From the IMG/VR virus record IMGVR_UViG_3300011113_000581, positions 24,134-88,133 of that record: a stretch of 64,000 nucleotides of DNA. The stretch is one strand, 5' to 3'. The number at the start of each line of letters is the position of its first letter. The first letter of the stretch is position 1. Below the pieces are notes generated by a model, which was not told the DNA's origin, made no database searches, and saw only the letters and a program-made list of their open reading frames with translations. The translations under genes and the position numbers were made by a program. This document shows, one piece after another, positions 13,758-45,533 of the stretch. This stretch comes from a virus.

Positions 13758-13788
13758 TAGGCAGTTTAACGTCATACCCAGGACGTTA
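13758..13788 (-). repeat. pseudoknot motif A, copy 1
   Basis: UAACGUC-C-UGGGUA-U-GACGUUA-AAC-UGCCUA. Confidence 0.8.
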
Positions 13789-16917: not shown

Positions 16918-16946
16918 TGGGCAGTTTAACGTCGTACCTAGGACGT
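16918..16946 (-). repeat. pseudoknot motif A, copy 2
   Basis: ACGUC-C-UAGGUA-C-GACGU-UAAAC-UGCCCA. Confidence 0.75.
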
Positions 16947-18057: not shown

Positions 18058-18085
18058 AAAACAGTTTAACGTCATACCTGGGACG
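18058..18085 (-). repeat. pseudoknot motif A, copy 3
   Basis: CGUC-C-CAGGUA-U-GACG-UUAAAC-UGUUUU (weak stem 2). Confidence 0.7.
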
Positions 18086-23513: not shown

Positions 23514-23870
23514 TTAAGCTGCTTGAGCACTGGTGTCAATGATGTTATCCATCATGCCAGCCTCACGCATTTTATCTAGCATTGCGCACATAACAGTTGC
23601 ATGCTCATGTGTTTTATCCATAAAAGCTTTGGCACGTTCAGCAGTAATGGTATGAACGGTACCATTAGCTTCAATGTATTGCCAGCTACCATCAGGCATT
23701 GGCTGCCCTTGGAGCGCAAGACGTTCTGAGTTACGTACGTACCTGAACTCAAGATTGTGACAATCAGTAAGACCGTCTACATCAGTCCAAGTTAGGCCAA
23801 GATTGTAACGCTTATCCTCATCCATGTAACCATGGGGCTGAGGAATAAGATGTTTGAAGTAGGAAAGCAT
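23514..23870 (-). CDS. hypothetical protein
   Basis: ORF downstream of motif B copy 1. Confidence 0.6.
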   Translation of the reverse strand: MLSYFKHLIPQPHGYMDEDKRYNLGLTWTDVDGLTDCHNLEFRYVRNSERLALQGQPMPDGSWQYIEANGTVHTITAERAKAFMDKTHEHATVMCAMLDKMREAGMMDNIIDTSAQAA

Positions 23871-23898
23871 GGTTTTAAATTAAGTGTGGATTGGTACC

Positions 23899-23926
23899 CT
23901 GGGACTTATACCTTACGGATGCCCAG
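23899..23926 (-). repeat. RNA motif B, copy 1
   Basis: CUGGG-CAU-CC-GUAA-GG-UAUAAGU-CCCAG. Confidence 0.75.
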
Positions 23927-23929
23927 TTT

Positions 23930-24430
23930 TTATGTTACATATTTATTATTAAGAATATAATGCAATGTTCCTTTAGAACTAATATTAAATTTTTCCATTA
24001 AAGCTTTATATCCTAAACCATTTGAATGATCGTTTTTAATCTGATTAATTTGATCTTTTGTGTATTTGCGTATACAACTTGATGCTTTAATTGCATGATT
24101 CAATCGTTGTTTTGAACATCTGTCTAACATGTTTTCTGTTTGAGTTCCAATGCAAATATTGTCAAACGAATTATCTTTACTATTTCCATTTAAATGTCTA
24201 ACAACTATGCCAACTTCAAATAATTTTTCTTGATATTTTTCATACGCAACTAAACGATGCAGAAATACTTTATGTGTTTTTGTACTTATTTTTAAATTAA
24301 AAAATAAATAGCCAGACTGAGAGCAACTTAATTTTAAAGGTTCTTTCTTGCGAATACCATAAACAATATTATTTTTTACTCGATAGCCTTTTCGATAAGC
24401 ACATATTAAAGCGGTTTGAGCTTGATTCAT
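23930..24430 (-). CDS. HNH homing endonuclease (HNH_3 type)
   Basis: GYL...LHRLVA...VVRHLNGNSKDN...NI...T..EN; AT-rich; start moved to 24430, after the tRNA. Confidence 0.8.
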   Translation of the reverse strand: MNQAQTALICAYRKGYRVKNNIVYGIRKKEPLKLSCSQSGYLFFNLKISTKTHKVFLHRLVAYEKYQEKLFEVGIVVRHLNGNSKDNSFDNICIGTQTENMLDRCSKQRLNHAIKASSCIRKYTKDQINQIKNDHSNGLGYKALMEKFNISSKGTLHYILNNKYVT

Positions 24431-24445
24431 AAATAATAAAAAGAC

Positions 24446-24520
24446 TGCCGACGACAGGATTCGAACCTGCACTTGAGTGATTTTAAGTCACTTACCTTCT
24501 TCCAATTGGGTTACGTCGGC
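24446..24520 (-). tRNA. trnL: tRNA-Leu(UAA)
   Basis: GCCGACG/CGUCGGC-A acceptor, AGUGA-CUUAAAA-UCACU anticodon arm, GCAGG-UUCGAAU-CCUGU T arm; no encoded CCA. Confidence 0.9.
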
Positions 24521-24727
24521 ATTACTTGGATTTACACTCACATCTATTGATGTGTGATACCAAGTGTGATCATGAGGTAATGGTTCACAGCCGTAGTCCC
24601 ACGTATCGTAATCATCTTCGTTACGTGGATCCTCAATCAATATGTATTGAGGTGAATGATCATGGATGTATTCACCAAGGTTTGCCATGGCCATGGCAAG
24701 TAATTGTTCGTCTGTGTAGTTAGTCAT
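24488..24727 (-). CDS. hypothetical acidic protein
   Basis: ORF whose last 33 nt lie inside the tRNA. Confidence 0.5.
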   Translation of the reverse strand: MTNYTDEQLLAMAMANLGEYIHDHSPQYILIEDPRNEDDYDTWDYGCEPLPHDHTWYHTSIDVSVNPSNADVTQLEEGK

Positions 24728-24733
24728 TGGGTG

Positions 24734-24767
24734 TGACCCGCCCTATTGTCGAGGATAGGACGGGTCA
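24734..24767 (-). promoter_or_regulatory. 13-bp intergenic hairpin (processing/stability site?)
   Basis: UGACCCGUCCUAU-8 nt-AUAGGGCGGGUCA; fully paired only on the minus strand. Confidence 0.55.
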
Positions 24768-24778
24768 GCCTGTGGGGG

Positions 24779-26533
24779 CTATGCAGATGCTAGCGCAGAT
24801 TCGCGTTTGGTCAACGCTTTACTGAAAGCAGTTGTGTAAAGCTCACGTTCCTCATCCGTAAGCCTGGCATTACCAATACCAGCGATCTGTTTGACAGACA
24901 TCATACCCATGTTTACTTCTAGTTGAATGGTAAACATTGGTTTGCCATCAATCATGCACAACACAATGAAGTGTTTCTTTTTACGAACACCATCTGCATA
25001 ACCACTGGCACTACCGACGCAATTACGTACGGCTTGTCCCCAAGCAGCTAGTTGATGCGTGTCAACTGGCTGGAAGAATGTCCACTTGCTGGAACCAAGT
25101 TCAAGTTTGACTGGTTCAGGAAACAAATCTTGGGGTAGTGATTCATTTTTGTTCTTAACTTTCCAGGCAACAGATTGGATGTGATCATGGAACTCCATAA
25201 GTCTCCAACGTTTTGGAACGTCAAGAGTCAATGGTTCTGTTGCGCACTCGTTGTGTGCAAGTACAGTATCTAACATTGAAATAGTATCACCCCAGTTGGA
25301 ATAATAAAAACGTGGATGCTGCAATTCTTCATCGTAAGTAAAACGAGTACGTGTGCTATTCATTTCTTTATCATATTCTTTTTCAAGGATAGAAAAGAAA
25401 GAAGCAACAGGCATATGTTTGTTTAACCAAGCTTGTGTTAGAAGTGAGCCATAACGTGTTGATTGAAAACTCAACAATTGATTAATGTGAGATTGATAAT
25501 AATCAATAGGGCAGTTAGGCCAAACTTCATACACCCAATTAATCGTATTAAACAAAACATGGATTTGAGACCATGGTGCACGAATAGATTTAAGCAGTTG
25601 ATTTTTAGAATTATAAAAGCTTGCATTAACTTCATCACATTTTGCTTGAATCCATTTTTTGAAGAATGGAGTAGCAATAATGTGTAGTAGTTTATTTAGC
25701 CTTCGATAAATATCACCGTCATAACCACTACCGTGTGCATAGTGAGTAATAAGTTTGAACAATAAGTCATATGAAATTACAGCTTTAGTAATGTCATGTT
25801 GCTGCCAATAATCTTTGCATTGGTGTCCGTAACGATAGTCATTAGTAAAGATTACGCAAGCTGGATTGATTGCCTGGAGCCGAGCAAAGGTTGATCGACT
25901 ATCAGACCACATAGGAATAGTGTTAAACAGTTGATCTTCAAATCCTTTTAGTTGTTGAGACAAGTTGCCAGACTTTTTATAATAGCTTTGAACACTTGGA
26001 ATGTTCCAGTTTTTAGCATCGTGACCATCAATAATATCTTGTTTAGTTACTAGTTCGTTGTATGTAAAATATTGAACTCGACCAACATGATATGTAAATA
26101 GTTTGTTTGGATTGTCAATATTTAAATGTTGACGAATCTTATGTGGAAGCATCCTGTGTGCAGATGCATTGTCTTTGAATGCATATGAGTAGCCATAAAC
26201 ATATTGATTTTCTTGTCCTTTGGGTGGTAACCATGCTGCATACCACACTTGCTCAAAGTGATACAAGATTGCGTACGGTGTTACTACACGATCAATAATT
26301 CGTGTGAACAGTTGATAACGATCAGGTGCTGCCTGTGAGTTAATATTGTCAATAGCATCGTTATACAATGATGCTGGCAATACTTCAGTTGGAATAAGTT
26401 GATTAGGTTTACCTAGTGGATGTGTAGCTTTCTTAGTTTTGTTAGTTGTTTTCTGCTGTTTAGCCAATGCTTTAAGAGCTGGGTCATACGCCATCAACTC
26501 TTGTTGCAGTTGAGCAGGAAGACGGAATTGCAT
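24779..26533 (-). CDS. PcfJ-like domain protein
   Basis: C-terminal EFHD...LAAWGQAVRNCVG...YAD...FTIQL...VKQIAG.GN. Confidence 0.7.
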   Translation of the reverse strand: MQFRLPAQLQQELMAYDPALKALAKQQKTTNKTKKATHPLGKPNQLIPTEVLPASLYNDAIDNINSQAAPDRYQLFTRIIDRVVTPYAILYHFEQVWYAAWLPPKGQENQYVYGYSYAFKDNASAHRMLPHKIRQHLNIDNPNKLFTYHVGRVQYFTYNELVTKQDIIDGHDAKNWNIPSVQSYYKKSGNLSQQLKGFEDQLFNTIPMWSDSRSTFARLQAINPACVIFTNDYRYGHQCKDYWQQHDITKAVISYDLLFKLITHYAHGSGYDGDIYRRLNKLLHIIATPFFKKWIQAKCDEVNASFYNSKNQLLKSIRAPWSQIHVLFNTINWVYEVWPNCPIDYYQSHINQLLSFQSTRYGSLLTQAWLNKHMPVASFFSILEKEYDKEMNSTRTRFTYDEELQHPRFYYSNWGDTISMLDTVLAHNECATEPLTLDVPKRWRLMEFHDHIQSVAWKVKNKNESLPQDLFPEPVKLELGSSKWTFFQPVDTHQLAAWGQAVRNCVGSASGYADGVRKKKHFIVLCMIDGKPMFTIQLEVNMGMMSVKQIAGIGNARLTDEERELYTTAFSKALTKRESALASA

Positions 26534-26560
26534 AGTGAGTTCGGAGTGAGTGTGTGGTGT

Positions 26561-26590
26561 TGAGCAGTTTAACGTCATGCTCAGGACGTT
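26561..26590 (-). repeat. pseudoknot motif A, copy 5
   Basis: AACGUC-C-UGAGCA-U-GACGUU-AAAC-UGCUCA; both stems perfect. Confidence 0.85.
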
Positions 26591-26593
26591 GGA

Positions 26594-26794
26594 TCAGATG
26601 CGCATTATTTCTTCACCATTACGGGTAAAGACAATGGCATCATCATAATCATCCATGTACTCTTGCAAAGTCATGGTCTTGTCTGGTGTAAAGACAGGCA
26701 TCTGGTTTGCAAACCCAAATGCACTATATACACGACCTTTAGGACCACGGATAACAAGGTACCAACGTTTAAATTCAATAGAGAAACCAATCAT
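26594..26794 (-). CDS. hypothetical protein
   Basis: Early-region ORF. Confidence 0.55.
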   Translation of the reverse strand: MIGFSIEFKRWYLVIRGPKGRVYSAFGFANQMPVFTPDKTMTLQEYMDDYDDAIVFTRNGEEIMRI

Positions 26795-26796
26795 GA

Positions 26797-27054
26797 TTAA
26801 TAGTAATCAGAGTTGTCTACAACGATAGGATGCCACTGGAGACCCAAGCTGTTAAGGTAGTCAATAAAGCTGCCTTCGTTAGTTGGAATAGTTTGGTCAG
26901 CATCAACATAGAAAGATGCTTGACATAATCCAGGAACATATTCAGGTGGATCAATATGCGTTGCTTGATATTTGAGATGTGCATCTTCAACCATTGCAGT
27001 AACTGTGACATGATCATCTTTGATGGTTGTTTCTTCAATTGAAATAATTGACAT
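26797..27054 (-). CDS. hypothetical protein
   Basis: Early-region ORF. Confidence 0.55.
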   Translation of the reverse strand: MSIISIEETTIKDDHVTVTAMVEDAHLKYQATHIDPPEYVPGLCQASFYVDADQTIPTNEGSFIDYLNSLGLQWHPIVVDNSDYY

Positions 27055-27134
27055 GAGTAGTGTGAATAGATGAAGTGTTGTTGTTACTAATAGTATCTAC
27101 GTGGTACAGGTTTTGAGGGGGGTCCTAGGGGGGA

Positions 27135-27338
27135 TTATTTGTTTGCAGTAGTTAGTTGCTCTGTTTTAGCAAACATTCCATTAGGACCATACTTCTCAAC
27201 AACATCAGGAAATGTGTCGAGTAAACGCTGACGGTTTTTAGGATCTGCATATCGGAGAGCAAGTCCCAATGCAGAGATGAATGAACCACCCATAGTTTCC
27301 ATACGGGTGACAAGTTCAGTGAATTGAATTGGTGTCAT
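27135..27338 (-). CDS. conserved phage hypothetical protein
   Basis: GGSF..AL..A...AD..N..RL...FP. Confidence 0.65.
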   Translation of the reverse strand: MTPIQFTELVTRMETMGGSFISALGLALRYADPKNRQRLLDTFPDVVEKYGPNGMFAKTEQLTTANK

Positions 27339-27361
27339 AGTTGTTAAGGTTGAGGTGAATG

Positions 27362-27400
27362 CTGGGACTTACACACTATACTTACGTTAGTGATGCCCAG
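27362..27400 (-). repeat. RNA motif B, copy 2
   Basis: CUGGG-CAU-CACUA...UAGUG-UGUAAGU-CCCAG. Confidence 0.8.
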
Positions 27401-27407
27401 TGTTTCT

Positions 27408-27605
27408 TTAAAATAATTTAATATTTCGTTTACTCAATCCTGTGCCTGGGATACTAATAGATCCAAGGACACCAGATTTGCGAGCGTTAAGTGTTAGCTG
27501 GAATGGACCAAGTTTGAATGATTTGGTATACGATTTGATACCATGTTCAGTTAAGTTAAAGCCAGCGATAGTGCGGTCAAAGTTAATAGGTGATTTCTTT
27601 GTCAT
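27408..27605 (-). CDS. DUF4236-like small protein
   Basis: KSFKLGPF.L.LN..KSG...SISIPGTGLS. Confidence 0.55.
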   Translation of the reverse strand: MTKKSPINFDRTIAGFNLTEHGIKSYTKSFKLGPFQLTLNARKSGVLGSISIPGTGLSKRNIKLF

Positions 27606-27928
27606 TACCAATCTCCATTACTAAAAGATTGAGTTACAACAAATGAAAGACTAAAAGCTTCTTCTTCAATTTCATTATCATCTGGTGTATAGTATCGAGC
27701 TTCAAAGCCACCAGATCCTGTTGTCTTACATTCAATAGCTCGATATAAAAGATTACGACATGAATTTTTCATGCGATTAATAGTTGGTACAGAGTGACCA
27801 GGCTCACCAATTGTATTAACCCATTTCCAATCCAAGGCATGCATTGTAATCAAAACTTTCTCAAAGTTAAAACGTTCGAGAAGATCTTCGATGAGTTCGG
27901 ATTGATGATCAGTAATTGTGAAAGTCAT
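27605..27928 (-). CDS. hypothetical protein
   Basis: FNFEKV...M.ALDWKW...PT...TGSGGFEA. Confidence 0.6.
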   Translation of the reverse strand: MTFTITDHQSELIEDLLERFNFEKVLITMHALDWKWVNTIGEPGHSVPTINRMKNSCRNLLYRAIECKTTGSGGFEARYYTPDDNEIEEEAFSLSFVVTQSFSNGDW

Positions 27929-28004
27929 ACTGATTTAATGAATTGAATGATTAAGTATGTGCCACATATAAAGAATGTGCACAATACAAATGCTTCAGGC
28001 CAGC

Positions 28005-28286
28005 TCATGGTTTGTTGTAGATAGTTCCTTTACGTTTGTAAAGGTCAAACCCTTCCATTGTCTTGGTGTCAAGAAATGTCCAAGGCCCAATGTTGGCACA
28101 GCCAATTAAGTAGTAGAACCGATAGAAGCCTGGGTTTTCATCCCACTCTTCATCGGTACACATGAGTTTAGATCCAACGCCAAGACTATTCTTGCGTTGG
28201 GTAACCCATATGTCACCTGGCTGAGCAGGCAGGTGACGTGTATTAGGTTGAGTCTTTGTTTGAGTCTTTGGTTTAGTTATGGTCAT
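28005..28286 (-). CDS. hypothetical protein
   Basis: Early-region ORF. Confidence 0.5.
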   Translation of the reverse strand: MTITKPKTQTKTQPNTRHLPAQPGDIWVTQRKNSLGVGSKLMCTDEEWDENPGFYRFYYLIGCANIGPWTFLDTKTMEGFDLYKRKGTIYNKP

Positions 28287-28501
28287 TGCAGATCTCCAGG
28301 TATGAGTGCATTGGTGTCTTCATCAGACATATTTGTCATAACAAATTTATTTCCATCGGCGTCTACAAAGCCGCCGACAAAACCAATACCATGTCGATCA
28401 GCAGATTCTTTCATCTTGGCAACGATTGACATAGCTTGCAATCGCTGACTATCAATTGCATCAGGGATGCGTGGTTTAGGTGCGTCGTTAAGTGCGGTCA
28501 T
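28283..28501 (-). CDS. hypothetical protein
   Basis: ORF downstream of motif B copy 3. Confidence 0.6.
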   Translation of the reverse strand: MTALNDAPKPRIPDAIDSQRLQAMSIVAKMKESADRHGIGFVGGFVDADGNKFVMTNMSDEDTNALIPGDLQ

Positions 28502-28527
28502 AGTGAATTAAGTGTGGAATAGTTGAG

Positions 28528-28572
28528 CAAGCTGGGACTTACACGCTTTCTGTCAGAACGATGCCCAGCTTG
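28528..28572 (-). repeat. RNA motif B, copy 3
   Basis: CAAGCUGGG-CAU-CG...CG-UGUAAGU-CCCAGCUUG. Confidence 0.8.
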
Positions 28573-28670
28573 TGTTCATAAGCTTACTACTCTCTGTCAA
28601 GGGTAAGCACCCCGTTCATGAGTTGTAACACTCACGTTGAGGGTGAAAGCTTATTGAGAATAGTTCGCAA

Positions 28671-28994
28671 TTACCGATGCATCTCTTGATGTTCTTTCCA
28701 TGCAGCGGCATGCATCTCAGCCATGGTAATAGGTGGTTCACCATAAGAATCTTCTGGCTCACCAGGCCATTCAATTGCTTTCTCTAGGTAGCCAATAGCT
28801 TCCAATAGATATTCATCTGAACCATACGGAAGATCGTTGTATCCCATAGGACGTTTCTCTTCTCGTTGGTAGATAGCTTTAAGTTCTTCGATGATTAGCG
28901 TGATGCGCATATCATCGTTGAGGCGTGGGGTGTATTCACTGCCATCGTGACGAGTATACGTCTGGCTAGTGAAGTAAAGTTCGTGTTTGCCCAT
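28671..28994 (-). CDS. hypothetical protein
   Basis: ORF downstream of motif B copy 4. Confidence 0.6.
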   Translation of the reverse strand: MGKHELYFTSQTYTRHDGSEYTPRLNDDMRITLIIEELKAIYQREEKRPMGYNDLPYGSDEYLLEAIGYLEKAIEWPGEPEDSYGEPPITMAEMHAAAWKEHQEMHR

Positions 28995-29022
28995 AGTGTG
29001 ATTGCTGTAGGTTTGGGTTGAT

Positions 29023-29063
29023 GCTGGGACTTACACCACGTACTTATGTAGTGGATGCCCAGC
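29023..29063 (-). repeat. RNA motif B, copy 4
   Basis: GCUGGG-CAU-CCAC...GUGG-UGUAAGU-CCCAGC. Confidence 0.8.
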
Positions 29064-29128
29064 TTGTAGTATTGGCACTATTACCAATACATGGGTAGTA
29101 TTGGCAAATCTTACGTGCTATTCAATAT

Positions 29129-29482
29129 TTAAATTAGACCAAGCAATGAGAGCCAGGAGTCTGGATGGTCGGGTTCTACTTCGTCATCACCTGGGGTGAA
29201 ACAGACTGAGTCGAACGCCCACTCCTCAATGTCCTCGTTGCTTGGGATTTCGTACCAACCCTGGAGGTCTTCGTCAGCGTACTTGGGTTTCCAGTAGAGC
29301 TGGAGTACGCCATGCTTGTCGCGGTAAACGCTGCCGTTTTTGGGGTAGGTGCTGAGGTCTCCAAGCTTGATTCCCTTTGGATCAAAGGTGATGTCAGCTT
29401 GGAACTGCTCTGTTCCTTCTTCTTCTGAGAAGGGAACATAACCGAAGGACTCAGCGATTTGTTGGGTGACGGGGTGAAGCAT
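29129..29482 (-). CDS. hypothetical protein
   Basis: Ends DSVCFTP..DEVEPDHPDSWLSLLGLI. Confidence 0.6.
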   Translation of the reverse strand: MLHPVTQQIAESFGYVPFSEEEGTEQFQADITFDPKGIKLGDLSTYPKNGSVYRDKHGVLQLYWKPKYADEDLQGWYEIPSNEDIEEWAFDSVCFTPGDDEVEPDHPDSWLSLLGLI

Positions 29483-29778: not shown

Positions 29779-29806
29779 TAAGCAGTTTAACGTCATACTC
29801 AGGACG
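29779..29806 (-). repeat. pseudoknot motif A, copy 6
   Basis: CGUC-C-UGAGUA-U-GACG-UUAAAC-UGCUUA. Confidence 0.8.
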
Positions 29807-32352: not shown

Positions 32353-32382
32353 GCTACGGTTTAACGTCCATCAGCTAGACGT
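32353..32382 (-). repeat. pseudoknot motif A, copy 7 (divergent)
   Basis: ACGUC-UA-GCUGAUG-GACGU-UAAAC-CGUAGC. Confidence 0.65.
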
Positions 32383-32872: not shown

Positions 32873-33127
32873 TGAACTAACTTGCAATGGAATTCCTGCG
32901 TTGCACGGATGCGCAGCCCCCGTTACACTTATATACCTACCCACCTATTCTTTTTTTTCTACCCACAATTCACTACGTATAGGTGTGTGGAGAACAGTCA
33001 GATAATTATTTCCCCAAACAGGTCAAAAAGTTGGCACCCTCATTTGAAATAATAGGTATTTATACTCAAAAAATATATAAAATACCCATTTGTATGTTAA
33101 AAGTCCACTTAGTCCAAATTTTGAGAC

Positions 33128-33495: not shown

Positions 33496-36400
33496 ATGGC
33501 GCTCTCTCAAGCTGATTTTTACGCTTATAGCCGTGCCACTGGTGCCCCAGTCCCCGAAGATCCCAGGGAACGGGCTGAAATGGCGCCTGAAGTACTTGCA
33601 TTTCGCCGTAATCAGCTTAAAGCTCCTGAACAACAGGGTCCAGACCCCCTTTCTGTAGGTATTGGGGTAGGTTTGGCTCTTGCGGGAGCTGGTGGAGCCT
33701 TATTTGGCGCACGTCGTTTGATGCGTGGGAAAACTGTTGTTCCATCTCAAGCAGAATTTGATAGAGCAAAAGCTGCAACAGAAGAAAGAGTAAAAAGAGC
33801 AGCACCAACTACTACTGGTCCGGTTGGAAATGTACTTCGTGATTTGTCGTCTGTTTCCGCTCCACCTCCTTCTCGAATTGCCACTGCAGATACTCCAGTT
33901 AGTCGCCAGCAAGTTCCTTCTGGACAATTTAGTAATGTACCAACACGTGCAAATCAGCCCGGTTCTTTTAAAGATTTAACAGATATTCAAAGTGAAATTA
34001 CGGCAGAAGCAAAAACAGATGACTTTTTAAATGCTTATTTAAAAGAACAACAGGAAGAACAGCAGGCAATTGATAAAGAAAACCGTTTTCAATCACGTAT
34101 TGTTCAAGGTATCGAAAGCAAAGAAAAAGCTTTAGCTAAAAATATTCTTGCTGATTTGCGTCGAGAAGAACAAGAAGCTAAACAATTTACACCACGTTCT
34201 TATATTGAAGAAACAGGTGCTGTTGAAGCGCGTCCAACAACTACTCCATCAGCCTGGGACGATACAGAAGATTATCCTGAATTTGTTATTCCTGAAGGAT
34301 CTAAACCTCCGTTAAGGTCTTCTGATCCTTCTAAGTTTTCTTTATCAAGTCTTGGTCAAGATCCCTGGTCGGATTTAACAGGTAAACAGCAAAATCAACA
34401 AAGTTCTGTTGTGCGTCAACAACAAGAAGCTGTTGACACAGGCTTAGATCAAACAATTCAAAATCTTAATTCTATTTCTCAACGTGACGTAGCCTCTGTT
34501 AAAGCAGGTGGATTTGTTTCTGCATCTGAAAGCCCTGCCAACCCTACACTAACTAGCTTAACAGTTAATCCAAATGAATCTGTTGTTGCTCAATTAAACA
34601 AACGAAAAGCATTACGCCAACAAGTTTTAAATCAAACACGCACTTCTTTAGATCTTGAAGCAGGAGATGCACCTCTTCCTGAAGGATTTGAGTTTCAAAC
34701 AACTCAAGCTGAAGGACTTCAAGTTGATCCTGGGGCGGTAGGAAAATTAGCTGAACAAAAACTTGAAGAAGCTAAACAACGACGTCAAACTCCTCCTCCT
34801 GCTCCTATTTCTGAAAGTTATCGCCAAGCTTTATTTGATGATAAAGGTTTATTAAAGCCAGAAATTATTGCTTTACATTTAGGAGATGAAAATGTATTTC
34901 CTGGTGCACTTGGGCAGGAGTTACGTGATTCTCTTACTACTGTTTCAACAATAGAAGCTAGAAAAACAGGTAAGTTAGATAAAATTGTTATTGCAAATCC
35001 AGGTGCACATTTAAGAGCTACTCAACATGTTCGTAATAATTTGTTAGCGCAAGATAACGCTAATACCATTAAAGAGTATTTGATTTCTGGTGGTGAACTT
35101 CAAACACCACGTACTAAAGGATTTGGCTATACAGGTACTCGTTCTATGAATACTGAAGTAGTCACAATTACAAATAATCAAGGACAACAAAAAATTCTTG
35201 TGTCAGGTCCAAAAGCAGCGGCTCGTTATGATCGCAGTGACTTAGAACCTATTTATTATGATCCTGCAACTAAATCGTATGTACGTAAATCAGATATTGG
35301 CGCCACTCAGTCGGTAGAAGGAGAGGCTGGTAGTGGTATTGGTGAAGAGATAGGCCAGGCTATTGGATTTGTCCCAAGAGAGCAAGTTGAAAAATTTACC
35401 ACGCTTCCTGGCACATCGGCATCAGGTAAATATTTAGGAGAAGATCAACCTAAAACCACGTGGTCTGATGACTTATTTGAAAATGCAATTAATGAAGAAT
35501 TAGAAATACAAAATAAAAAACAAGGCGTAGACTATGCTATTGGTGGTGTTAAAGAATTTGGAAGTGGTAAAGAATCTACCAGTTTAGAAATACAGCCTCG
35601 TCCGTTGTTCAATACTCATTACGAAGCTCTTGATGCTAATAAAATTAAAATTACTAACAATGGTAATGCATATTTAAAAGTTGACAAGTTAACCTTATTG
35701 GCTAACCCTGGTACAGAAAGGTACATTGATCCTCAATATGGAACTCTATTTGTAAATCCTTATACAGGCCGTCAATTTTCAAGTCCTCAAGAAGCAACAG
35801 ACACGTATAATCGTTTAACTAACAATTTAAATGTAAAACTAATTGAACGCGCTGAAAAACGAATCAGTGGTTTAGAGCGTGGTGAAAATTTAAATCTTGA
35901 ATTAAGTAAGAGTAAAACAGGTCAAAAAAATGTTGTTACTCGATTAAATCCAAATCTTGTTGTTGAACAAGTTGTAACACGAGGTCCATCTGGTGAAACA
36001 AAAACCAGTAACGTAACTCTTTCTCAGGCTTTACGCAATGAACTTTTAAATGAAGGGTTGCTTCAAGAACATCGTATTATTAATGAGGATGGATCTGAAG
36101 GTGCTCGTTTCTTCAAGCAAACACGATATCAAGTTCCCCAAGATCGCACATATACTGATAAAACTACAGGACAACAGAAAGCTTCAGTTCTTAGTTTTAA
36201 AGATGCCAATTTACCACCAGTTGATGTTAATAAAAGTGATGAAATTCTTTCGGCAAAAAACAATTATTTATTCTTGCAAGGCGTAAATAATGCTCTTGAA
36301 AAAATTACGGGGCAACGCGTTAAAGTTATTGACCAAGCAATTACTTTAGGTCAAGATCCAGAAGTAGAGTTCCTTGGTGGCCCTGGAAAAAACCCTATAC

Positions 36401-37167
36401 TTCGTGAAGCCTTAACGGTTGCAAATACCTTGGCTAATACTTCAGAAACTTCTCGCATCCGCATGCAAGAGCCTGGAGTTGATGCTGGGCTTGGAGAACG
36501 TTATGGATTAGGTGCACAAGAATCGCGTAGAGCACAGCCGAGTGTACCAAGCAGGGTACAGTCTGTTGAGTTTCCTGTTGCAAAAGTTGTAACTAGTACA
36601 ATAAAAGATCCAGTTACAGAAGAACTTGAAGAAGTAAGTTCATTTATTTCAACAGGACAAACAAAATCTGTTTCTAACGCTCCCGAAACAATTGGTGCTA
36701 AACGTTTAGTTAGTGCACTTAACGATTACAAACAAAGAACAGGTAAAGCTTTAAATAAAGCAAATGTTTTGCAATTTGCTTCAAGCATTGCTCAACAAGA
36801 ACAAGCTGATGTTGACGAATTGTTAATACAAGCTTCAATTCTTGCTAAAGGTTCTGGTAAACAAGCAACTGTTGGTAGGCAAATGAAGCAAGGGCGTCAA
36901 GCCCTTGGTTTAATGGATGTAATTTCTCCTGAAGAAGAAATTGCTCAAACAGTTTTAGAATATGATTTTGGCGAGACTGTTGGATCAGATTTAGCAGAAG
37001 CTTTAGCTGCCACTGAGTCTCAGTCGCCTAGGGCTACAATGACAGAAGCACAACAAAGACGAGCGCAAGTTGAACCTCCAGGTTTAAGTGCTGAAACTTT
37101 AGGTAATGTAATGGAACAATTAAGAGCACAAGCAAGTCGCCGCTCTGGTAAGCGCAGGAGTCGTTAA
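33496..37167 (+). CDS. large protein, possible internal virion/ejection protein
   Basis: 1223 aa, N-terminal Gly-rich TM segment, first gene of the late arm. Confidence 0.5.
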   Translation: MALSQADFYAYSRATGAPVPEDPRERAEMAPEVLAFRRNQLKAPEQQGPDPLSVGIGVGLALAGAGGALFGARRLMRGKTVVPSQAEFDRAKAATEERVKRAAPTTTGPVGNVLRDLSSVSAPPPSRIATADTPVSRQQVPSGQFSNVPTRANQPGSFKDLTDIQSEITAEAKTDDFLNAYLKEQQEEQQAIDKENRFQSRIVQGIESKEKALAKNILADLRREEQEAKQFTPRSYIEETGAVEARPTTTPSAWDDTEDYPEFVIPEGSKPPLRSSDPSKFSLSSLGQDPWSDLTGKQQNQQSSVVRQQQEAVDTGLDQTIQNLNSISQRDVASVKAGGFVSASESPANPTLTSLTVNPNESVVAQLNKRKALRQQVLNQTRTSLDLEAGDAPLPEGFEFQTTQAEGLQVDPGAVGKLAEQKLEEAKQRRQTPPPAPISESYRQALFDDKGLLKPEIIALHLGDENVFPGALGQELRDSLTTVSTIEARKTGKLDKIVIANPGAHLRATQHVRNNLLAQDNANTIKEYLISGGELQTPRTKGFGYTGTRSMNTEVVTITNNQGQQKILVSGPKAAARYDRSDLEPIYYDPATKSYVRKSDIGATQSVEGEAGSGIGEEIGQAIGFVPREQVEKFTTLPGTSASGKYLGEDQPKTTWSDDLFENAINEELEIQNKKQGVDYAIGGVKEFGSGKESTSLEIQPRPLFNTHYEALDANKIKITNNGNAYLKVDKLTLLANPGTERYIDPQYGTLFVNPYTGRQFSSPQEATDTYNRLTNNLNVKLIERAEKRISGLERGENLNLELSKSKTGQKNVVTRLNPNLVVEQVVTRGPSGETKTSNVTLSQALRNELLNEGLLQEHRIINEDGSEGARFFKQTRYQVPQDRTYTDKTTGQQKASVLSFKDANLPPVDVNKSDEILSAKNNYLFLQGVNNALEKITGQRVKVIDQAITLGQDPEVEFLGGPGKNPILREALTVANTLANTSETSRIRMQEPGVDAGLGERYGLGAQESRRAQPSVPSRVQSVEFPVAKVVTSTIKDPVTEELEEVSSFISTGQTKSVSNAPETIGAKRLVSALNDYKQRTGKALNKANVLQFASSIAQQEQADVDELLIQASILAKGSGKQATVGRQMKQGRQALGLMDVISPEEEIAQTVLEYDFGETVGSDLAEALAATESQSPRATMTEAQQRRAQVEPPGLSAETLGNVMEQLRAQASRRSGKRRSR

Positions 37168-40513: not shown

Positions 40514-40953
40514 TTATGGCTTTTTCTGATACTGTTTCCAAAGGTACTCAAATAGGTATGTTTGGCTGGAATCCTCTTGCCAATATTCGTTCTCAAGAAG
40601 ATTACAACAAATTACCTGACGGTCTTAAAAATGTTTATAATGAAGCTCTTGGCTATAGGAATATTATTGGAGGTTTAAATGAATCTCCGGAACAACGTAA
40701 ACAAAGATTGCAAGTTGAGCTTGATGCACAAAAAGAGATGCTTAATTTTGCACAAGGCCTGGGCAAAGAGTCAGTAGAAACTGCTTATAAATATAAAACA
40801 CTTGCCGATATTCCTAAAACAATTGCTCAAGGATTTGGCAATATTGCCGCAACTAATTTATATGGTGGTCAAGCCTTGGCAGCTCCTTACAATTATCCAA
40901 GATTGCAACCTATTGCCTACAATCCTAGGCCTGAAATAGATTATTTTAGCTAG
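40510..40953 (+). CDS. hypothetical protein
   Basis: Late-arm ORF. Confidence 0.6.
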   Translation: MIMAFSDTVSKGTQIGMFGWNPLANIRSQEDYNKLPDGLKNVYNEALGYRNIIGGLNESPEQRKQRLQVELDAQKEMLNFAQGLGKESVETAYKYKTLADIPKTIAQGFGNIAATNLYGGQALAAPYNYPRLQPIAYNPRPEIDYFS

Positions 40954-40959
40954 AATAAA

Positions 40960-41508
40960 ATGACCTACAGTTTCCCGTCTCAATTTACAACTTTTGATCC
41001 GTCAAAAGCTTTCTCTGGTGGGTATGGGAATTTTTCTAATCCTGGCGCTTTAAAAAGTGGTAGTGGAGGCAACATGTTAGGCTTAGTCGGTACTCTAGGT
41101 AGCAGTTTAATTGGTGCTATTTCCGGTTTTGGTCAAGTACAGACTGCTGCAAGTATTGCACAAGCACAAGCTGATCAAGCTAGAGATCGACAGATTTACG
41201 AAAGAGAGGTAAATAAAGGCGCTCTTGCTCAAGGCATACATCAAATGGTGTATGGATCAACTACGGCACCTGAACTTGCCCTTGGTTTTCAAGAACGAGC
41301 TAAAAAACTTGAGCTGGGTCCTTTTGCTGAACGACAACTTGGACTCAGTTCAGAAGCGTCTAAGCGGGAACGGTTTGGACGTATTTCACCTGAATCCAAA
41401 GAAGCGGCTAGATTTGAAAATAAACTTGCTATTGATCGGGCTATTGCAGAACGTCGCGCCATAACTGACGCAATGTTTGGTCGTACATCTTCTAGTTATT
41501 TTACATAA
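40960..41508 (+). CDS. hypothetical, ejection-protein-like
   Basis: GLVGTLGSSLIGAISGFGQ...AQAQA architecture. Confidence 0.55.
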   Translation: MTYSFPSQFTTFDPSKAFSGGYGNFSNPGALKSGSGGNMLGLVGTLGSSLIGAISGFGQVQTAASIAQAQADQARDRQIYEREVNKGALAQGIHQMVYGSTTAPELALGFQERAKKLELGPFAERQLGLSSEASKRERFGRISPESKEAARFENKLAIDRAIAERRAITDAMFGRTSSSYFT

Positions 41509-44006: not shown

Positions 44007-45533
44007 GTGCCTGCATATCTTCATCAAGCTTATCGACGCAACGCACAGGCTGCTGCAAAGAATCACCGGGTGCGCAAGAAAGATAATGAAGATCTTTTGG
44101 AACTGGCACGAGAAGACTTTGGTTACTTTTGTGATTACGTAGCAGATAAACCACCTGCTAAACATCATCAAGATTGGCATCGGCAATTAGTTACCAACCA
44201 AGACAGCTCTTGCCTGCTGAAAATTGCTGGTCCAAATATTGACCTGTTAGCTCCACGAGGATCAGCCAAAAGTACGGTTGCAGGTTTGTTTGCAGCATGG
44301 GCTATTGGTGTACACACTGCAGCCAAACGCCCTTTACAGATTCTTTATCTTTCTTATACGGTTGATATCGCTCGTTCCAAGTCAGCAACAATTAAACGAC
44401 TTATTGAAAGTAAAAAATATCAAGACGTTTTTCCAACAGTAAAACTTCTTAAGAACGTTACAAGCAATGAGTACTGGTCTATTGACCATCGTTTTGCTGG
44501 TATTGATATTGCTGGTGAAGAACAGTTCACACTCTGCGCTGCTGGCCTAAAAGGTTCAGTGACTTCCAAACGCAGTCAATTGGTAATTATTGATGACGCC
44601 ATTAAGAGCTCATCAGATATTGCCAACCCTGACATCCGAAAGATGATGCAGGATAATTGGAATGCAGTGATTGCACCAACCATGTTTGAAGGTGGACGTG
44701 CTATCTGCCTTGGTACCAGATTTAGACATGATGACATTCATGCAACTACTTTTAATGAACAGAACAATTGGATGCAAATTGTTCTTTCTGCAATTCAAAA
44801 CAATGAAATTACCGGAGAGGAAGAATCCTATTGGCCTGAAATGTGGTCATTGGATTATTTAAAAGAAAAGAAAAGGCAAGCACCTATTGCCTTCTCTTTC
44901 CAGTACATGAATCAGATCGTCAGGCAGAATGAACTGTCATTGGCGCCTGAACTATTGGTTAAAGCAGAGATTGCTACAGAGTTTGATTCACTGGCTGTTG
45001 GGGTTGACCTCTCCGCTGGTACAAAAGAAAAGAATGATTACACAGTGTTTACTCTTGGCGGAAAACTTGGAGATCAGATTCATATAATTGATTACCGTCG
45101 AATGCGTGTGATGGGCAACCTAGAAAAATTAGATGCTCTTAAAGAATTGCTTAATGATTGGTCTATTCTTGGACGCGACGAGAACGGTAATTACTTTCCT
45201 ACGTATAACACTTGTGATGTTTACTCAGAAGCTGTCGCGTACCAGGCATCTCTTGAAGCTGATTTCAAGCGTATCTGCTTAAGAAACGAAAACCTTTATA
45301 ACATCAACTGGCATGCTGTTAAAGGTTTTAGGGCAGATAAACTTGCTCGCTTCCGTGGTTGTATGGGTCTTTTTGAAGATCGTAAGATTATCTTCAATCG
45401 TTATCGAAACTTTACGGCAATGTTTGAAGAACTTACTAATTTTGGTGTAAGTAGTCACGACGACTGTGTTGATTCGTTGGTCTGGCTCATTAATGGATTA
45501 ACACGGAAGGGTACTCTTCAGGTTGATTACTAA
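44007..45533 (+). CDS. terL: terminase large subunit
   Basis: Walker A APRGSAKST, Walker B LVIIDD, coupling motif GTR, nuclease GVD...HDDCVD. Confidence 0.92.
   Translation: MPAYLHQAYRRNAQAAAKNHRVRKKDNEDLLELAREDFGYFCDYVADKPPAKHHQDWHRQLVTNQDSSCLLKIAGPNIDLLAPRGSAKSTVAGLFAAWAIGVHTAAKRPLQILYLSYTVDIARSKSATIKRLIESKKYQDVFPTVKLLKNVTSNEYWSIDHRFAGIDIAGEEQFTLCAAGLKGSVTSKRSQLVIIDDAIKSSSDIANPDIRKMMQDNWNAVIAPTMFEGGRAICLGTRFRHDDIHATTFNEQNNWMQIVLSAIQNNEITGEEESYWPEMWSLDYLKEKKRQAPIAFSFQYMNQIVRQNELSLAPELLVKAEIATEFDSLAVGVDLSAGTKEKNDYTVFTLGGKLGDQIHIIDYRRMRVMGNLEKLDALKELLNDWSILGRDENGNYFPTYNTCDVYSEAVAYQASLEADFKRICLRNENLYNINWHAVKGFRADKLARFRGCMGLFEDRKIIFNRYRNFTAMFEELTNFGVSSHDDCVDSLVWLINGLTRKGTLQVDY

Follow-up and report, generated by a model that had tools for sequence, protein, structure and literature searches.

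A small hairpin with a conserved CA / RUAAGY internal loop precedes genes and tRNAs in cyanophages and may protect RNA 5' ends

Results

A conserved hairpin occurs four times in an S-EIV1-like cyanophage

The window analysed here, a stretch of 64,000 nucleotides from the complete 88-kb genome of an S-EIV1-like cyanophage, carries four copies of a hairpin which we confirm as a genuine conserved structured element, located on the sense strand and preceding genes. We propose, with a probability of roughly 0.45, that it is a cis-acting RNA module defining and protecting the 5' ends of the downstream RNA.

The four copies had been noticed in a first-pass annotation made from the letters of the sequence, and both an exact search pattern, CTGGGCAT-N(4-34)-TRTAAGTCCCAG, and a covariance model (R1, built from 43 copies of the window and other loci) recovered them (Table 1). 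The exact pattern matched four times in the window, always on the minus strand, and 0 of 100 shuffles gave any match. R1 scored the four copies at 33.6-48.9 bits, the next best match in the window reaching 13.5 bits, and found no further copies elsewhere in the 88-kb genome. The starts first noted for copies 3 and 4 (28528 and 29023) include flanking pairs; the outer helix of copy 3 is extendable to AAGCUGGG/CCCAGCUU (28529-28571). A fifth, 'minimal variant' suggested at 32896-32916 on the minus strand had to be dropped: it gave no R1 match at E <= 10, is devoid of UAAG, and the hairpin is absent from its minimum-free-energy fold.

In all four copies the outer helix is CUGGG/CCCAG. The loop strands read CAU and U-GUAAGU in three copies and CAU and U-AUAAGU in one. 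Inner stems of 2-5 bp are each different and all paired, and the copies and their folds bear out the earlier observation that these helices keep pairing despite divergent sequences and lengths. Copy 2 has a CACUA/UAGUG inner stem with a 9-nt apical loop containing a second GUAAGU, and copy 4 an inner stem CCAC(U)/(A)GUGG whose apical loop includes AUAAGU. A second RUAAG is found within the inner stem-loop of three of the four copies; in copies 2 and 4 the apical loop displays it. The predicted folds are only moderately stable, with -9 kcal/mol for copy 1, and most of their z-scores fall short of significance. Neither the terminator scan nor the sequence revealed a U tract or an intrinsic terminator after the four window copies.

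Table 1. Hairpin copies, leaders and downstream ORFs in the window (all positions are those of the window).
Feature	Position	Strand	Remarks
Hairpin copy 1	23899..23926	-	minimal form, CUGGG-CA-U-[CC GUAA GG]-U-AUAAGU-CCCAG; exact pattern; R1 48.9 bits
Leader of copy 1	23871..23898	-	28 nt; G-poor, without Shine-Dalgarno site
ORF after copy 1	23514..23870	-	118 aa; hairpin also precedes orthologues in four other phages
Hairpin copy 2	27362..27400	-	exact pattern; R1 33.6 bits
Leader of copy 2	27339..27361	-	23 nt; G-less
ORF after copy 2	27135..27338	-	67 aa; L049 orthologue has coremin-like module instead
Hairpin copy 3	28532..28568	-	exact pattern; R1 37.0 bits; fold prediction
Leader of copy 3	28502..28531	-	30 nt
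ORF after copy 3	28283..28501	-	72 aa
Hairpin copy 4	29024..29062	-	exact pattern; R1 36.7 bits; fold z-score -2.6
Leader of copy 4	28995..29023	-	29 nt
ORF after copy 4	28671..28994	-	107 aa

Structure and covariation of the motif

The motif consists of two helices. The outer one has the consensus N-U-R-G-G / C-C-Y-A-N; between it and the inner stem-loop, which is variable, lie CA on the 5' side and R-U-A-A-G-Y on the 3' side, with an N.N' pair closing the internal loop and the last 3' position being U or C. Covariation was seen over 43 and 24 sequences. For the outer helix in alignment A1 the observed level was reached by 0 of 500 shuffles; when no helix sequence was imposed, pair 2 was GC 20, AU 3 and GU 1 times, and pair 3 was UA 19, AU 2, CG 1 and GC 1 times. 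The inner helices of different copies are unrelated in sequence and pairing is always kept. Both helices vary freely, whereas the loop and its flanking G-C pairs are almost invariant; an A-to-G change at the second 5' position was seen twice, in S-EIV1 copy 2 and in L258. The GGGCA and GUAAG-Y blocks lie about 10 to 40 nt apart.

The loop had originally been described as CAU / U(G/A)UAAGU. Its conservation holds, its extent needs correction: the third 5' nucleotide is paired with the first 3' nucleotide (U.U 108, G-C 5, G.U 4, A-U 1 and U-A 1 times), leaving CA / R-U-A-A-G-Y as the loop proper. The same covariation across the loop, which involves the first U of the 3' strand, speaks against the T-loop proposed earlier, as a T-loop needs 1-5 pairing (U.A reverse Hoogsteen) within a five-nucleotide loop. 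Two other known folds were considered and rejected. A kink-turn needs a three-nucleotide bulge with tandem sheared G.A / A.G pairs, and CA / RUAAGY permits no GA/GA arrangement. The 11-nt GAAA tetraloop receptor consists of CCUAAG opposite UAUGG; of this the hairpin has UAAG, with only CA facing it. A U.A / AA-platform-like core is a possible arrangement.

Inner tetraloops of the GNRA or UNCG type on the sense strand number 18, compared to 5 of the antisense-type classes, and all copies with a near downstream gene or tRNA have the same orientation as that gene or tRNA. Tetraloop classes and co-orientation together indicate that the hairpin acts as RNA on the sense strand; counts of G.U versus A.C showed no preference for this strand, and among RNA runs none contained the sequence.

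Distribution among viruses

A scan with fixed helices and unconstrained loops gave 44 viral matches, of which 38 contained the CA / RUAAGY loop. The same scan of 596 Gb of prokaryote genomes yielded 0 of 113 matches with the conserved loop, showing that the hairpin is restricted to viruses. It is present in many uncultured cyanophages and in at least four cyanophage lineages. The loop nucleotides are kept in related and unrelated phages alike, so that the motif withstands the refutation test set for it in the first-pass annotation. S-EIV1 (KJ410740) holds two copies (41434-41480 and 40724-40789), and up to five are found on one related contig. The hairpin lies upstream of small early genes and, in other phages, of a major capsid gene, a tail-tube gene and tRNA genes, and it also adjoins a T7-type RNA polymerase gene. 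With its sub-regulon of early genes the first-pass annotation drew this range too narrowly. No protein family common to the flanks of different carrier lineages was found. In Rfam 15 no family, ribozymes included, matches the hairpin even at E <= 10, the only Rfam matches within 23700-29300 being a tRNA and a chance snoRNA.

Position relative to neighboring genes

We determined the position of 77 unique hairpin copies from S-EIV1-like phages. In 61 of these the helix starts at most 11 nt (0-11) after the upstream stop codon, and in 65 an ATG follows 19-34 nt beyond the hairpin. In the window the upstream stop codon is separated by 3 nt from copy 1 and by 7 nt from copy 2. Between CCCAG and the ATG lie 28, 23, 30 and 29 nt in copies 1-4 (25-32 nt if counted from CCC); the 23-28 nt given previously apply to copies 1 and 2 and are slightly exceeded by copies 3 and 4. 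Gene pairs free of any module overlap or abut. The hairpin was located upstream of 20 of 20 distinct members of the 107-aa ORF family in S-EIV1-like loci.

Leaders between hairpin and ATG in S-EIV1-like phages are G-poor (5.9% G family-wide versus 21.7% in coding sequence) and without a Shine-Dalgarno site. Complementarity of at least 6 nt between the GUAAG loop and the leader was observed 17 times, with 6.6 expected; variation in the loop is not matched by changes in this complementarity, and many of the instances are orthologous.

In contigs of T4-like cyanophages the hairpin is placed 4-8 nt upstream of tRNA genes, which indicates that its job is not specific to translation. Candidate promoters close to the consensus TTGACA-N16-18-TATNAT end 8 nt (L050), 9 nt (L055) and 24 nt (L020/L102) before the hairpin and indicate that in some phages it is probably transcribed from such putative sigma-70-type promoters upstream. 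Some T7-like contigs have a U run (U8) after the hairpin, and there the hairpin may serve as a terminator.

Exchange with a coremin-like module

A second element of S-EIV1-like phages, GUC..GAC-GUUAAACU or more fully GUC-loop-GAC-GUUAAACUG, resembles the coremin of plant viruses (GUCCGAAGACGUUAAACUAC) and equals it at 15 of 16 stem-and-spacer positions. In many copies its loop is CUGGGCAU, the same eight letters as in the 5' strand of the hairpin; the variants CUGAG/CUGGGUAU occur as well, in the window too. For six orthologous families of downstream proteins, the slot before the gene is occupied by the hairpin in some phages and by the coremin-like module in others, as in the case of a PcfJ-like protein of the window and its 39% identical counterpart in L056. 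The two elements are therefore interchangeable at orthologous gene junctions.

Coremin stalls Xrn1 and scanning ribosomes (PMC10520033, PMC6546385). From the likeness of the sequences we infer that the coremin-like module would work in cyanobacteria as coremin does against Xrn1, and that the hairpin would do the same job; the chain from coremin-like module to roadblock to hairpin likewise draws on sequence likeness and slot-sharing.

Discussion

Because its slot is shared with the coremin-like module, the most likely role of the hairpin is to mark where each downstream RNA begins and to shield this end. We envisage a portable cis module, carried within phage sense transcripts, which would form the 5' border of functional RNA units. 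Such a unit may be a single cistron of an early polycistronic mRNA, the mRNA for a capsid protein or the precursor of a tRNA. Outer helix, CA / R-U-A-A-G-Y loop and inner helix would form a compact fold able to stall 5'-to-3' decay, in cyanobacteria by RNase J, and to bar RNase E from 5'-end-dependent entry, one or the other being the enzyme presumably concerned. The product would be a hairpin-capped RNA with an unstructured, G-poor leader of 20-35 nt, onto which ribosomes would load without a Shine-Dalgarno site. The nuclease link drawn in the first-pass annotation is plausible in this form, that is as a block to decay; a cleavage site is less likely.

It is further conceivable, though on balance doubtful, that dsDNA cyanophages use exoribonuclease-resistant roadblocks to split polycistronic transcripts into units that are stable independently of each other, and possess two interchangeable classes of them, the coremin-like pseudoknot and the 28-nt CA/RUAAGY hairpin. 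Against a roadblock stands the nested structure of the hairpin, which shows neither the ring nor the pseudoknot topology found in known exonuclease-resistant RNAs. If true, the hairpin would add to these RNAs a structural class that is new and very small, and would link the RNA biology of plant RNA viruses with that of phages. To our knowledge it would be the first exoribonuclease-resistant roadblock in bacterial viruses, and a literature search by sequence strings found no earlier report.

A near-invariant loop would be expected of a tertiary fold and of a protein partner alike. Protein binding, also raised in the first-pass annotation, is a live but rather unlikely alternative: the hairpin would be an operator for a phage or host RNA-binding protein recognizing GG-CA / RUAAGY-CC and co-regulating translation, localisation or stability. 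Loop and flanking pairs that hardly change between freely varying helices, the second RUAAG in three of the four window copies (apically exposed in copies 2 and 4) and the fixed distance to the ATG would all be expected of such an operator. It accounts less well for hairpins before tRNA genes, which leave nothing for translational control to act on, and for the absence of the motif from host genomes (0/113); the flanks of the carrier lineages share no protein family, and a sequence-specific binder would have to rely on the CUGGGCAU stretch shared with an interchangeable module of otherwise quite different sequence. The location between cistrons or just upstream of tRNAs would also fit a processing signal at which RNase E or another endonuclease cuts in or near the loop, separating cistrons and releasing tRNA precursors, and the RNase III sites of phage T7 are a precedent for intergenic hairpins with conserved internal loops. 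We regard this as improbable, since in L050 and L055, with a promoter 8-9 nt upstream, transcripts would begin at the hairpin anyway and require no cleavage, and since the minimal form comprises no more than about 9 base pairs (5 + 1 + 2 in copy 1). This is too short for RNase III, as a site of the T7 R1.1 type needs about two turns of stacked dsRNA. An upstream cut followed by protection through a 5' hairpin would yield the same products as the boundary module, and to this extent the two readings overlap.

An action in cis on host RNA polymerase by antitermination or pausing, similar to HK022 put RNA or nut, would agree with the promoter-proximal position in T4-like and T7-like contexts, with the untranslated tRNA operons downstream and with portability among phages of one host group. 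We consider it very improbable: four copies here and up to five on the related contig occupy successive cistron junctions of an apparent single operon, and so many copies fit a per-cistron job better than a per-operon job. Moreover, the constrained ATG spacing would be unexplained, and no terminators follow the window copies. A self-cleaving ribozyme of very small size, cutting polycistronic RNA at cistron borders, seems hardly credible. The invariant internal loop, the intercistronic or pre-tRNA position and the phage-only distribution, which is typical of many small ribozymes, would suit it; yet no Rfam family was matched, and a 28-nt minimal form with about 12 conserved nucleotides, a 1x4 or 2x6 loop and no second conserved element nearby across lineages is far below the size of any known natural class. 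The earlier idea of self-cleavage thus finds no backing. Equally remote is a DNA-level promoter for a phage single-subunit RNA polymerase, although the Syn5 promoter ATTGGGCACCCGTAA followed by GC (PMC3950665; twice in the Syn5 genome) holds both blocks, GGGCA and GTAAG-Y, in the same order, and although the motif precedes genes and tRNAs, shares their orientation and is absent from host genomes. No PF00940 polymerase was detected in the complete genome of the window or in four other carriers, with Syn5 as detected positive control; block spacing varies from about 10 to 40 nt (inner parts of 4-34 nt), a duplex promoter does not explain covariation of the flanking helices, and canonical sigma-70-type candidate promoters precede the motif in several phages. 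Contigs encoding a T7-type polymerase hold one copy and no hairpin-less versions, and Syn5 itself is without the hairpin. The promoter reading is not supported.

Compared with known systems, coremin or xrRNA-C (PMC6546385, PMC10520033) is likewise a small conserved structured RNA and has the roadblock role proposed here for the hairpin. It is characterized by a YGAD or YGNNAD loop, an GUUAAACUAC spacer and a second 3' hairpin, all three of which the cyanophage hairpin lacks; GU.AA are the only shared letters, whereas the neighboring coremin-like module has stem and spacer. The carriers differ as well, being plant RNA viruses in the case of coremin and dsDNA phages of bacteria, whose hosts are without Xrn1, in the case of the hairpin. 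The Syn5 promoter ATTGGGCACCCGTAA (PMC3950665), also from a cyanophage, has GGGCA and then GTAAG(C) as in the hairpin but is a fixed 15-bp duplex without hairpin or flanking complementarity, and hairpin carriers mostly do not encode such a polymerase. Lambda boxB/nut and HK022 put are small cis-acting phage RNA hairpins near the transcript start too; boxB depends on its loop sequence and put on a two-stem fold, and an operon has just one or two of them. The cyanophage hairpin, by contrast, has many copies per operon, which sit at cistron junctions with fixed spacing to the ATG. The RNase III sites between cistrons of T7 (R1.1 and others) are similarly repeated, in early as well as late operons, have a conserved internal loop and lie about 20-60 nt before start codons; their two stacked stems comprise about 20 base pairs, compared to about 9 pairs in the minimal hairpin.

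Stem-loops of the ompA leader and the T7 gene 10 leader are known as 5'-terminal stabilisers of bacterial and phage mRNAs. These need only a stem, whereas the cyanophage hairpin keeps a specific internal loop across lineages, and most of its copies lie inside operons, unlike stabilisers at primary 5' ends. The arrangement of a hairpin, located at the 5' end of the RNA or only a few nucleotides from it, an open leader and a start codon is common to both, and the promoter-proximal copies of L050 and L055 fit it exactly.

The hairpin in the window genome

The IMG/VR virus record, of which the window forms the last 64 kb, comprises 88,133 bp and is rated complete. Its virion protein shares 85% identity with the counterpart in Synechococcus phage S-EIV1, and the virus also codes for a family A DNA polymerase, a terminase and tail fibres. 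The first-pass annotation had described four copies of a hairpin with a conserved internal loop ahead of early genes, and these proved to be real: the pattern CTGGGCAT-N(4-34)-TRTAAGTCCCAG occurs at four places in the window, on the minus strand only, while 0 of 100 shuffles contained a match. The covariance search that had been suggested there recovered all four copies, numbered by rising coordinate, with scores of 33.6–48.9 bits for our covariance model R1 and a clear gap to the next-best window match at 13.5 bits. A "minimal variant" proposed at 32896-32916 had to be given up, as R1 does not match it at E <= 10 and its minimum-free-energy fold lacks the proposed hairpin. The model found no fifth copy across the whole 88,133-bp genome, and Rfam 15 showed no match to the hairpin at the gathering threshold and none at E <= 10.

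Coordinates of hairpins, coremin-like modules and promoters (window positions unless a contig is named)
Feature	Location	Strand	Remark
Hairpin copy 1	23899-23926	-	exact pattern
Hairpin copy 2	27362-27400	-	exact pattern
Hairpin copy 3	28532-28568	-	exact pattern
Hairpin copy 4	29024-29062	-	exact pattern
Coremin-like module, exact	13762-13773, 16922-16933, 18062-18073, 26565-26576, 29783-29794	-	GACGTTAAACTG
Coremin-like module, 1 mismatch	32357-32368	-	GACGTTAAACTG
Promoter TTGACA-17-TATATT or TATGAT	L102 and L020		end 24 nt ahead of hairpin
Promoter TTGACA-18-TATGAT	L050		end 8 nt ahead of hairpin
Promoter TTGACA-16-TATCAT	L055		end 9 nt ahead of hairpin
Syn5 RNA polymerase promoter ATTGGGCACCCGTAA|GC	L246 (Syn5 genome) 4929-4946 and 44797-44814		

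Structure of the hairpin

When only the loops were specified and the helices left free, viral contigs yielded at least 120 loci, a count that does not represent independent events because many copies are orthologous. Both helices were paired in 78 of 138 cases among the matches listed. The same scan of 596 Gb of prokaryote genomes returned 121 matches, 3 of them paired, corresponding to chance level. Conversely, with helices and GNRA cap fixed and the loops left free, the loop was present in 38 of 44 unique viral matches among those listed, mostly as CAT/TGTAAGT (15), CAT/TGTAAGC (8) or CAG/CGTAAGT (5), with CAA/TGT.., CAT/AGT.. and CGT/TAT.. among the rarer types; in the prokaryote genomes (596 Gb) it was found in 0 of 113 matches. 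The loop variants show position 3 on the 5' side to be paired with position 1 on the 3' side, which leaves CA against R-U-A-A-G-Y as the loop proper. The T-loop pattern noted here in the first-pass annotation does not hold.

Holding one G-C pair of the outer helix fixed and leaving the rest free, we observed compensatory changes at pair 2 (GC 20, AU 3, GU 1) and pair 3 (UA 19, AU 2, CG 1, GC 1), and in a gap-free alignment of 43 hairpin copies the observed covariation was reached by 0 of 500 shuffles. In two of the four window copies (1 and 4) ViennaRNA predicts a pair between the C and the G of the loop, with the Y bulged out and A facing RUAA; since C and G are both invariant this pairing remains a model only. 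Three window copies carry a second RUAAG within the inner stem-loop, and in copies 2 and 4 the apical loop exposes it. Tetraloop types (18 sense-type versus 5 antisense-type) provide moderate evidence that the hairpin acts as a sense-strand RNA, whereas counts of G.U versus A.C give no strand information, given the high A and C content of the flanks. Complementarity between the GUAAG loop and the leader is enriched but shows no covariation, and a pseudoknot between them was rejected. A riboswitch and a CRISPR-repeat mimic were dropped from the sequence, the former for want of an expression platform, the latter because the inner stem varies within one genome.

Distribution among cyanophages

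Clustering of the hairpin-bearing loci by shared proteins resulted in several unrelated groups. At least four unrelated cyanophage lineages carry the hairpin, which is absent from Rfam and 596 Gb of cellular genomes. In S-EIV1-like phages (53 loci) it lies ahead of small early genes. A second group has a capsid protein 67% identical to that of cyanomyovirus S-CBWM1; here the hairpin separates the major capsid gene from the structural gene upstream of it, and another hairpin and a GGAG site come after the first one. T7-like contigs encoding a single-subunit RNA polymerase possess one copy adjoining that gene, T4-like cyanophage contigs carry the hairpin 4–8 nt ahead of tRNA genes with a wcaG RNA nearby, and high-G+C contigs form a further carrier group. 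S-EIV1, a cultured phage with two copies, was the sole named phage with the motif among those examined; it was not found in Syn5, S-CBWM1 and three cultured T4-like cyanophages (S-H38, S-SCSM2R, Sf-CH11). Searches of 50,697 phage records with the hairpin region and copy 1 (megablast and blastn) gave no match, and a literature search by sequence strings retrieved unrelated primers only. When the 4,459 ORFs of 115 motif-bearing loci were compared all against all, no protein family common to the carrier lineages emerged, a weak result because only the flanks were compared.

Some carriers show additional features next to the hairpin. In the S-CBWM1-like contig L052 a group I intron that contains an ORF of 222 aa (4542-5457, minus strand) splits the major capsid gene a few codons past its start. 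A link between this intron, whose Rfam match adjoins the motif, and the hairpin was discarded: the intron lies inside the capsid gene and relatives without it retain the same leader, therefore the two are unrelated. In the high-G+C contigs L010, L032, L063, L105, L272 and L279 an ATG does not come next; the hairpin instead precedes a stretch of 50–130 nt made up of repeated GGCA/GGCG-rich units, for example ggcaggcuacggcagggcg, which may represent a non-coding RNA capped by the hairpin at its 5' end. The T7-like contigs L281 (4057-4100) and L288 (7732-7775) have a run of eight U directly 3' of the hairpin, so that it looks like an intrinsic terminator; in L281 about 450 nt separate it from the RNA polymerase gene downstream.

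Position, leaders and promoters

Among the 77 unique S-EIV1-like copies the helix starts within 11 nt of the upstream ORF's stop codon in 61, and in 65 an ATG that begins an ORF of 35 codons or more lies 19–34 nt downstream of the CCC. The leaders, those in window 23871-29023 as well as 63 in S-EIV1-like loci, are nearly G-free from -20 to -1. In the S-EIV1-like loci their G content is 5.9% versus 21.7% in coding sequence, a Shine-Dalgarno-like tetramer occurs in 1 of 63, and A-C-C is favoured ahead of the ATG; translation in these phages therefore appears to initiate without relying on a Shine-Dalgarno site. Where no structured module intervenes, neighbouring window genes overlap or directly adjoin each other (-8 to +2 nt between them), whereas junctions with a hairpin or a coremin-like module, a second element described below, have gaps of 52–181 nt. 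Hairpin and open leader therefore mark a fresh ribosome entry point inside the operon.

In lineages outside the S-EIV1-like group a near-consensus sigma-70-type promoter is located directly upstream of the hairpin. Judging from these promoter sequences, the hairpin in L102, L020, L050 and L055 is probably transcribed and situated at or near the primary 5' end. Such a position downstream of the promoter and within the transcript argues against the hairpin itself being a promoter. Sigma-70-type promoters were found upstream of 0 of the 77 S-EIV1-like copies, and none ahead of the four window copies was convincing.

A coremin-like module in the same slot

The early arm of the window contains GACGTTAAACTG in five exact copies and one with a single mismatch, in the context GUC-(8-nt loop)-GAC-GUUAAACUG. 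This element, listed as pseudoknot family A in the first-pass annotation, matches the plant-virus coremin or xrRNA-C motif, printed as GUCCGAAGACGUUAAACUAC (PMC10520033), in stem and spacer. Coremin stalls Xrn1 and scanning ribosomes, and variants with a large loop are still active (PMC10520033, PMC6546385). S-EIV1-like loci contain 34 unique copies. Each has an ATG 23–38 nt beyond its 12-nt core, and in only one of them is the distance greater than 32 nt. The loop reads CUGGGCAU in many copies, letter for letter like the 5' strand of the hairpin, with CUGAG/CUGGGUAU variants elsewhere, window included. It pairs with a downstream CCUA to form a pseudoknot that covaries (UGGG/CCUA, UGAG/CUCA, UAAG/CUUA).

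Six downstream protein families in S-EIV1-like loci are preceded by the hairpin in some phages and by the coremin-like module in others: PcfJ-like proteins (hairpin 2, coremin-like 15) and families of 61 aa (16, 1), about 64 aa (8, 2), about 255 aa (1, 4), about 370 aa (1, 2) and about 66 aa (1, 1). One PcfJ-like pair, with one member behind each module, shares 39% identity over 511 residues. The two modules therefore replace one another in a single slot, the strongest functional clue found. A coremin-like element in a dsDNA phage deserves a separate report.

Possible function

In our reading, held with a probability of roughly 45%, the hairpin works in cis as an RNA module that would set the 5' end of the RNA unit following it and shield that end. 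Structure, distribution, position and swap rest on direct observation here, the enzyme and the roadblock action on inference. RNase J is a 5'-to-3' decay enzyme in cyanobacteria, and stalling of such decay would be the most likely mode of shielding. The hairpin would also deny entry to a 5'-end-dependent endonuclease, while the G-poor leader would remain open for ribosome loading without a Shine-Dalgarno site. Such a module fits intercistronic as well as promoter-proximal positions, the use before tRNAs and ORFs alike, several copies per operon, the restriction to viruses and the swap with the coremin-like module.

An operator for an RNA-binding protein would suit the invariant loop and the second RUAAG of three window copies, yet neither the tRNA contexts nor the module swap fits it, and no protein is common to the carrier lineages in the flanks compared; we regard it as unlikely, though worth keeping in mind. 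That the hairpin is an endonuclease site is improbable, and this idea overlaps with that of a 5'-end module. Action on RNA polymerase would agree with the promoter-proximal copies but not with many copies per operon, and is quite improbable. The motif does bear a real likeness to the promoter of the Syn5 polymerase, ATTGGGCACCCGTAA|GC, which contains both conserved blocks of the motif, GGGCA and GTAAG-Y, in the same order but lacks the hairpin; this may be either chance or common origin. Absence of the polymerase, variable spacing, helix covariation and the single copy in polymerase-encoding contigs nevertheless make a Syn5-type promoter very hard to credit, and a ribozyme, with nothing in its support, is equally so.

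A nearly invariant loop in an element of 28–60 nt, found across at least four unrelated lineages, points to a shared and unstudied step of phage gene expression in cyanobacteria. If the hairpin blocks 5'-to-3' decay, exonuclease-resistant RNAs would extend from eukaryotic RNA viruses to phages. In that case the hairpin would also account for the survival of phage messages that lack a Shine-Dalgarno site during turnover of the host's RNA, and would offer a very compact part for RNA stabilisation in cyanobacteria. With its two copies, cultured S-EIV1 makes the question directly testable.

Additional observations in the window

A tRNA-Leu(UAA) gene (24445-24521, minus strand) lies within the early arm, 520 nt upstream of copy 1. 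Upstream of copy 4 (29066-29120, minus strand) GCCAAUACUAC is present twice as a direct repeat, the first copy belonging to an inverted repeat CCAAUAC-N7-GUAUUGG that could be an operator or another hairpin. Two near-identical elements after a UGA stop (31847-31762 and 31610-31560, minus strand; family C of the first-pass annotation) have the layout UGAUCCGUUAAAGCGGGU-(7-bp stem)-GUGCAAAC-(stem)-CAGUUAUU, and their stems differ by compensatory changes (GGACAGG/CCUGUCC versus UGGGAGG/CCUCCCA). The rightward structural arm opens with a protein of 1223 aa (33496-37167, plus strand) that is of low complexity and enriched in Q, S, T and P; it was rejected as a hidden polymerase given its composition and the lack of any Pfam, PHROG or PDB match. 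An Rfam abiF RNA (7032-7068, plus strand, 49.7 bits) is located directly upstream of a tRNA-like gene (7073-7144, plus strand), which ARAGORN called with an odd two-base anticodon.
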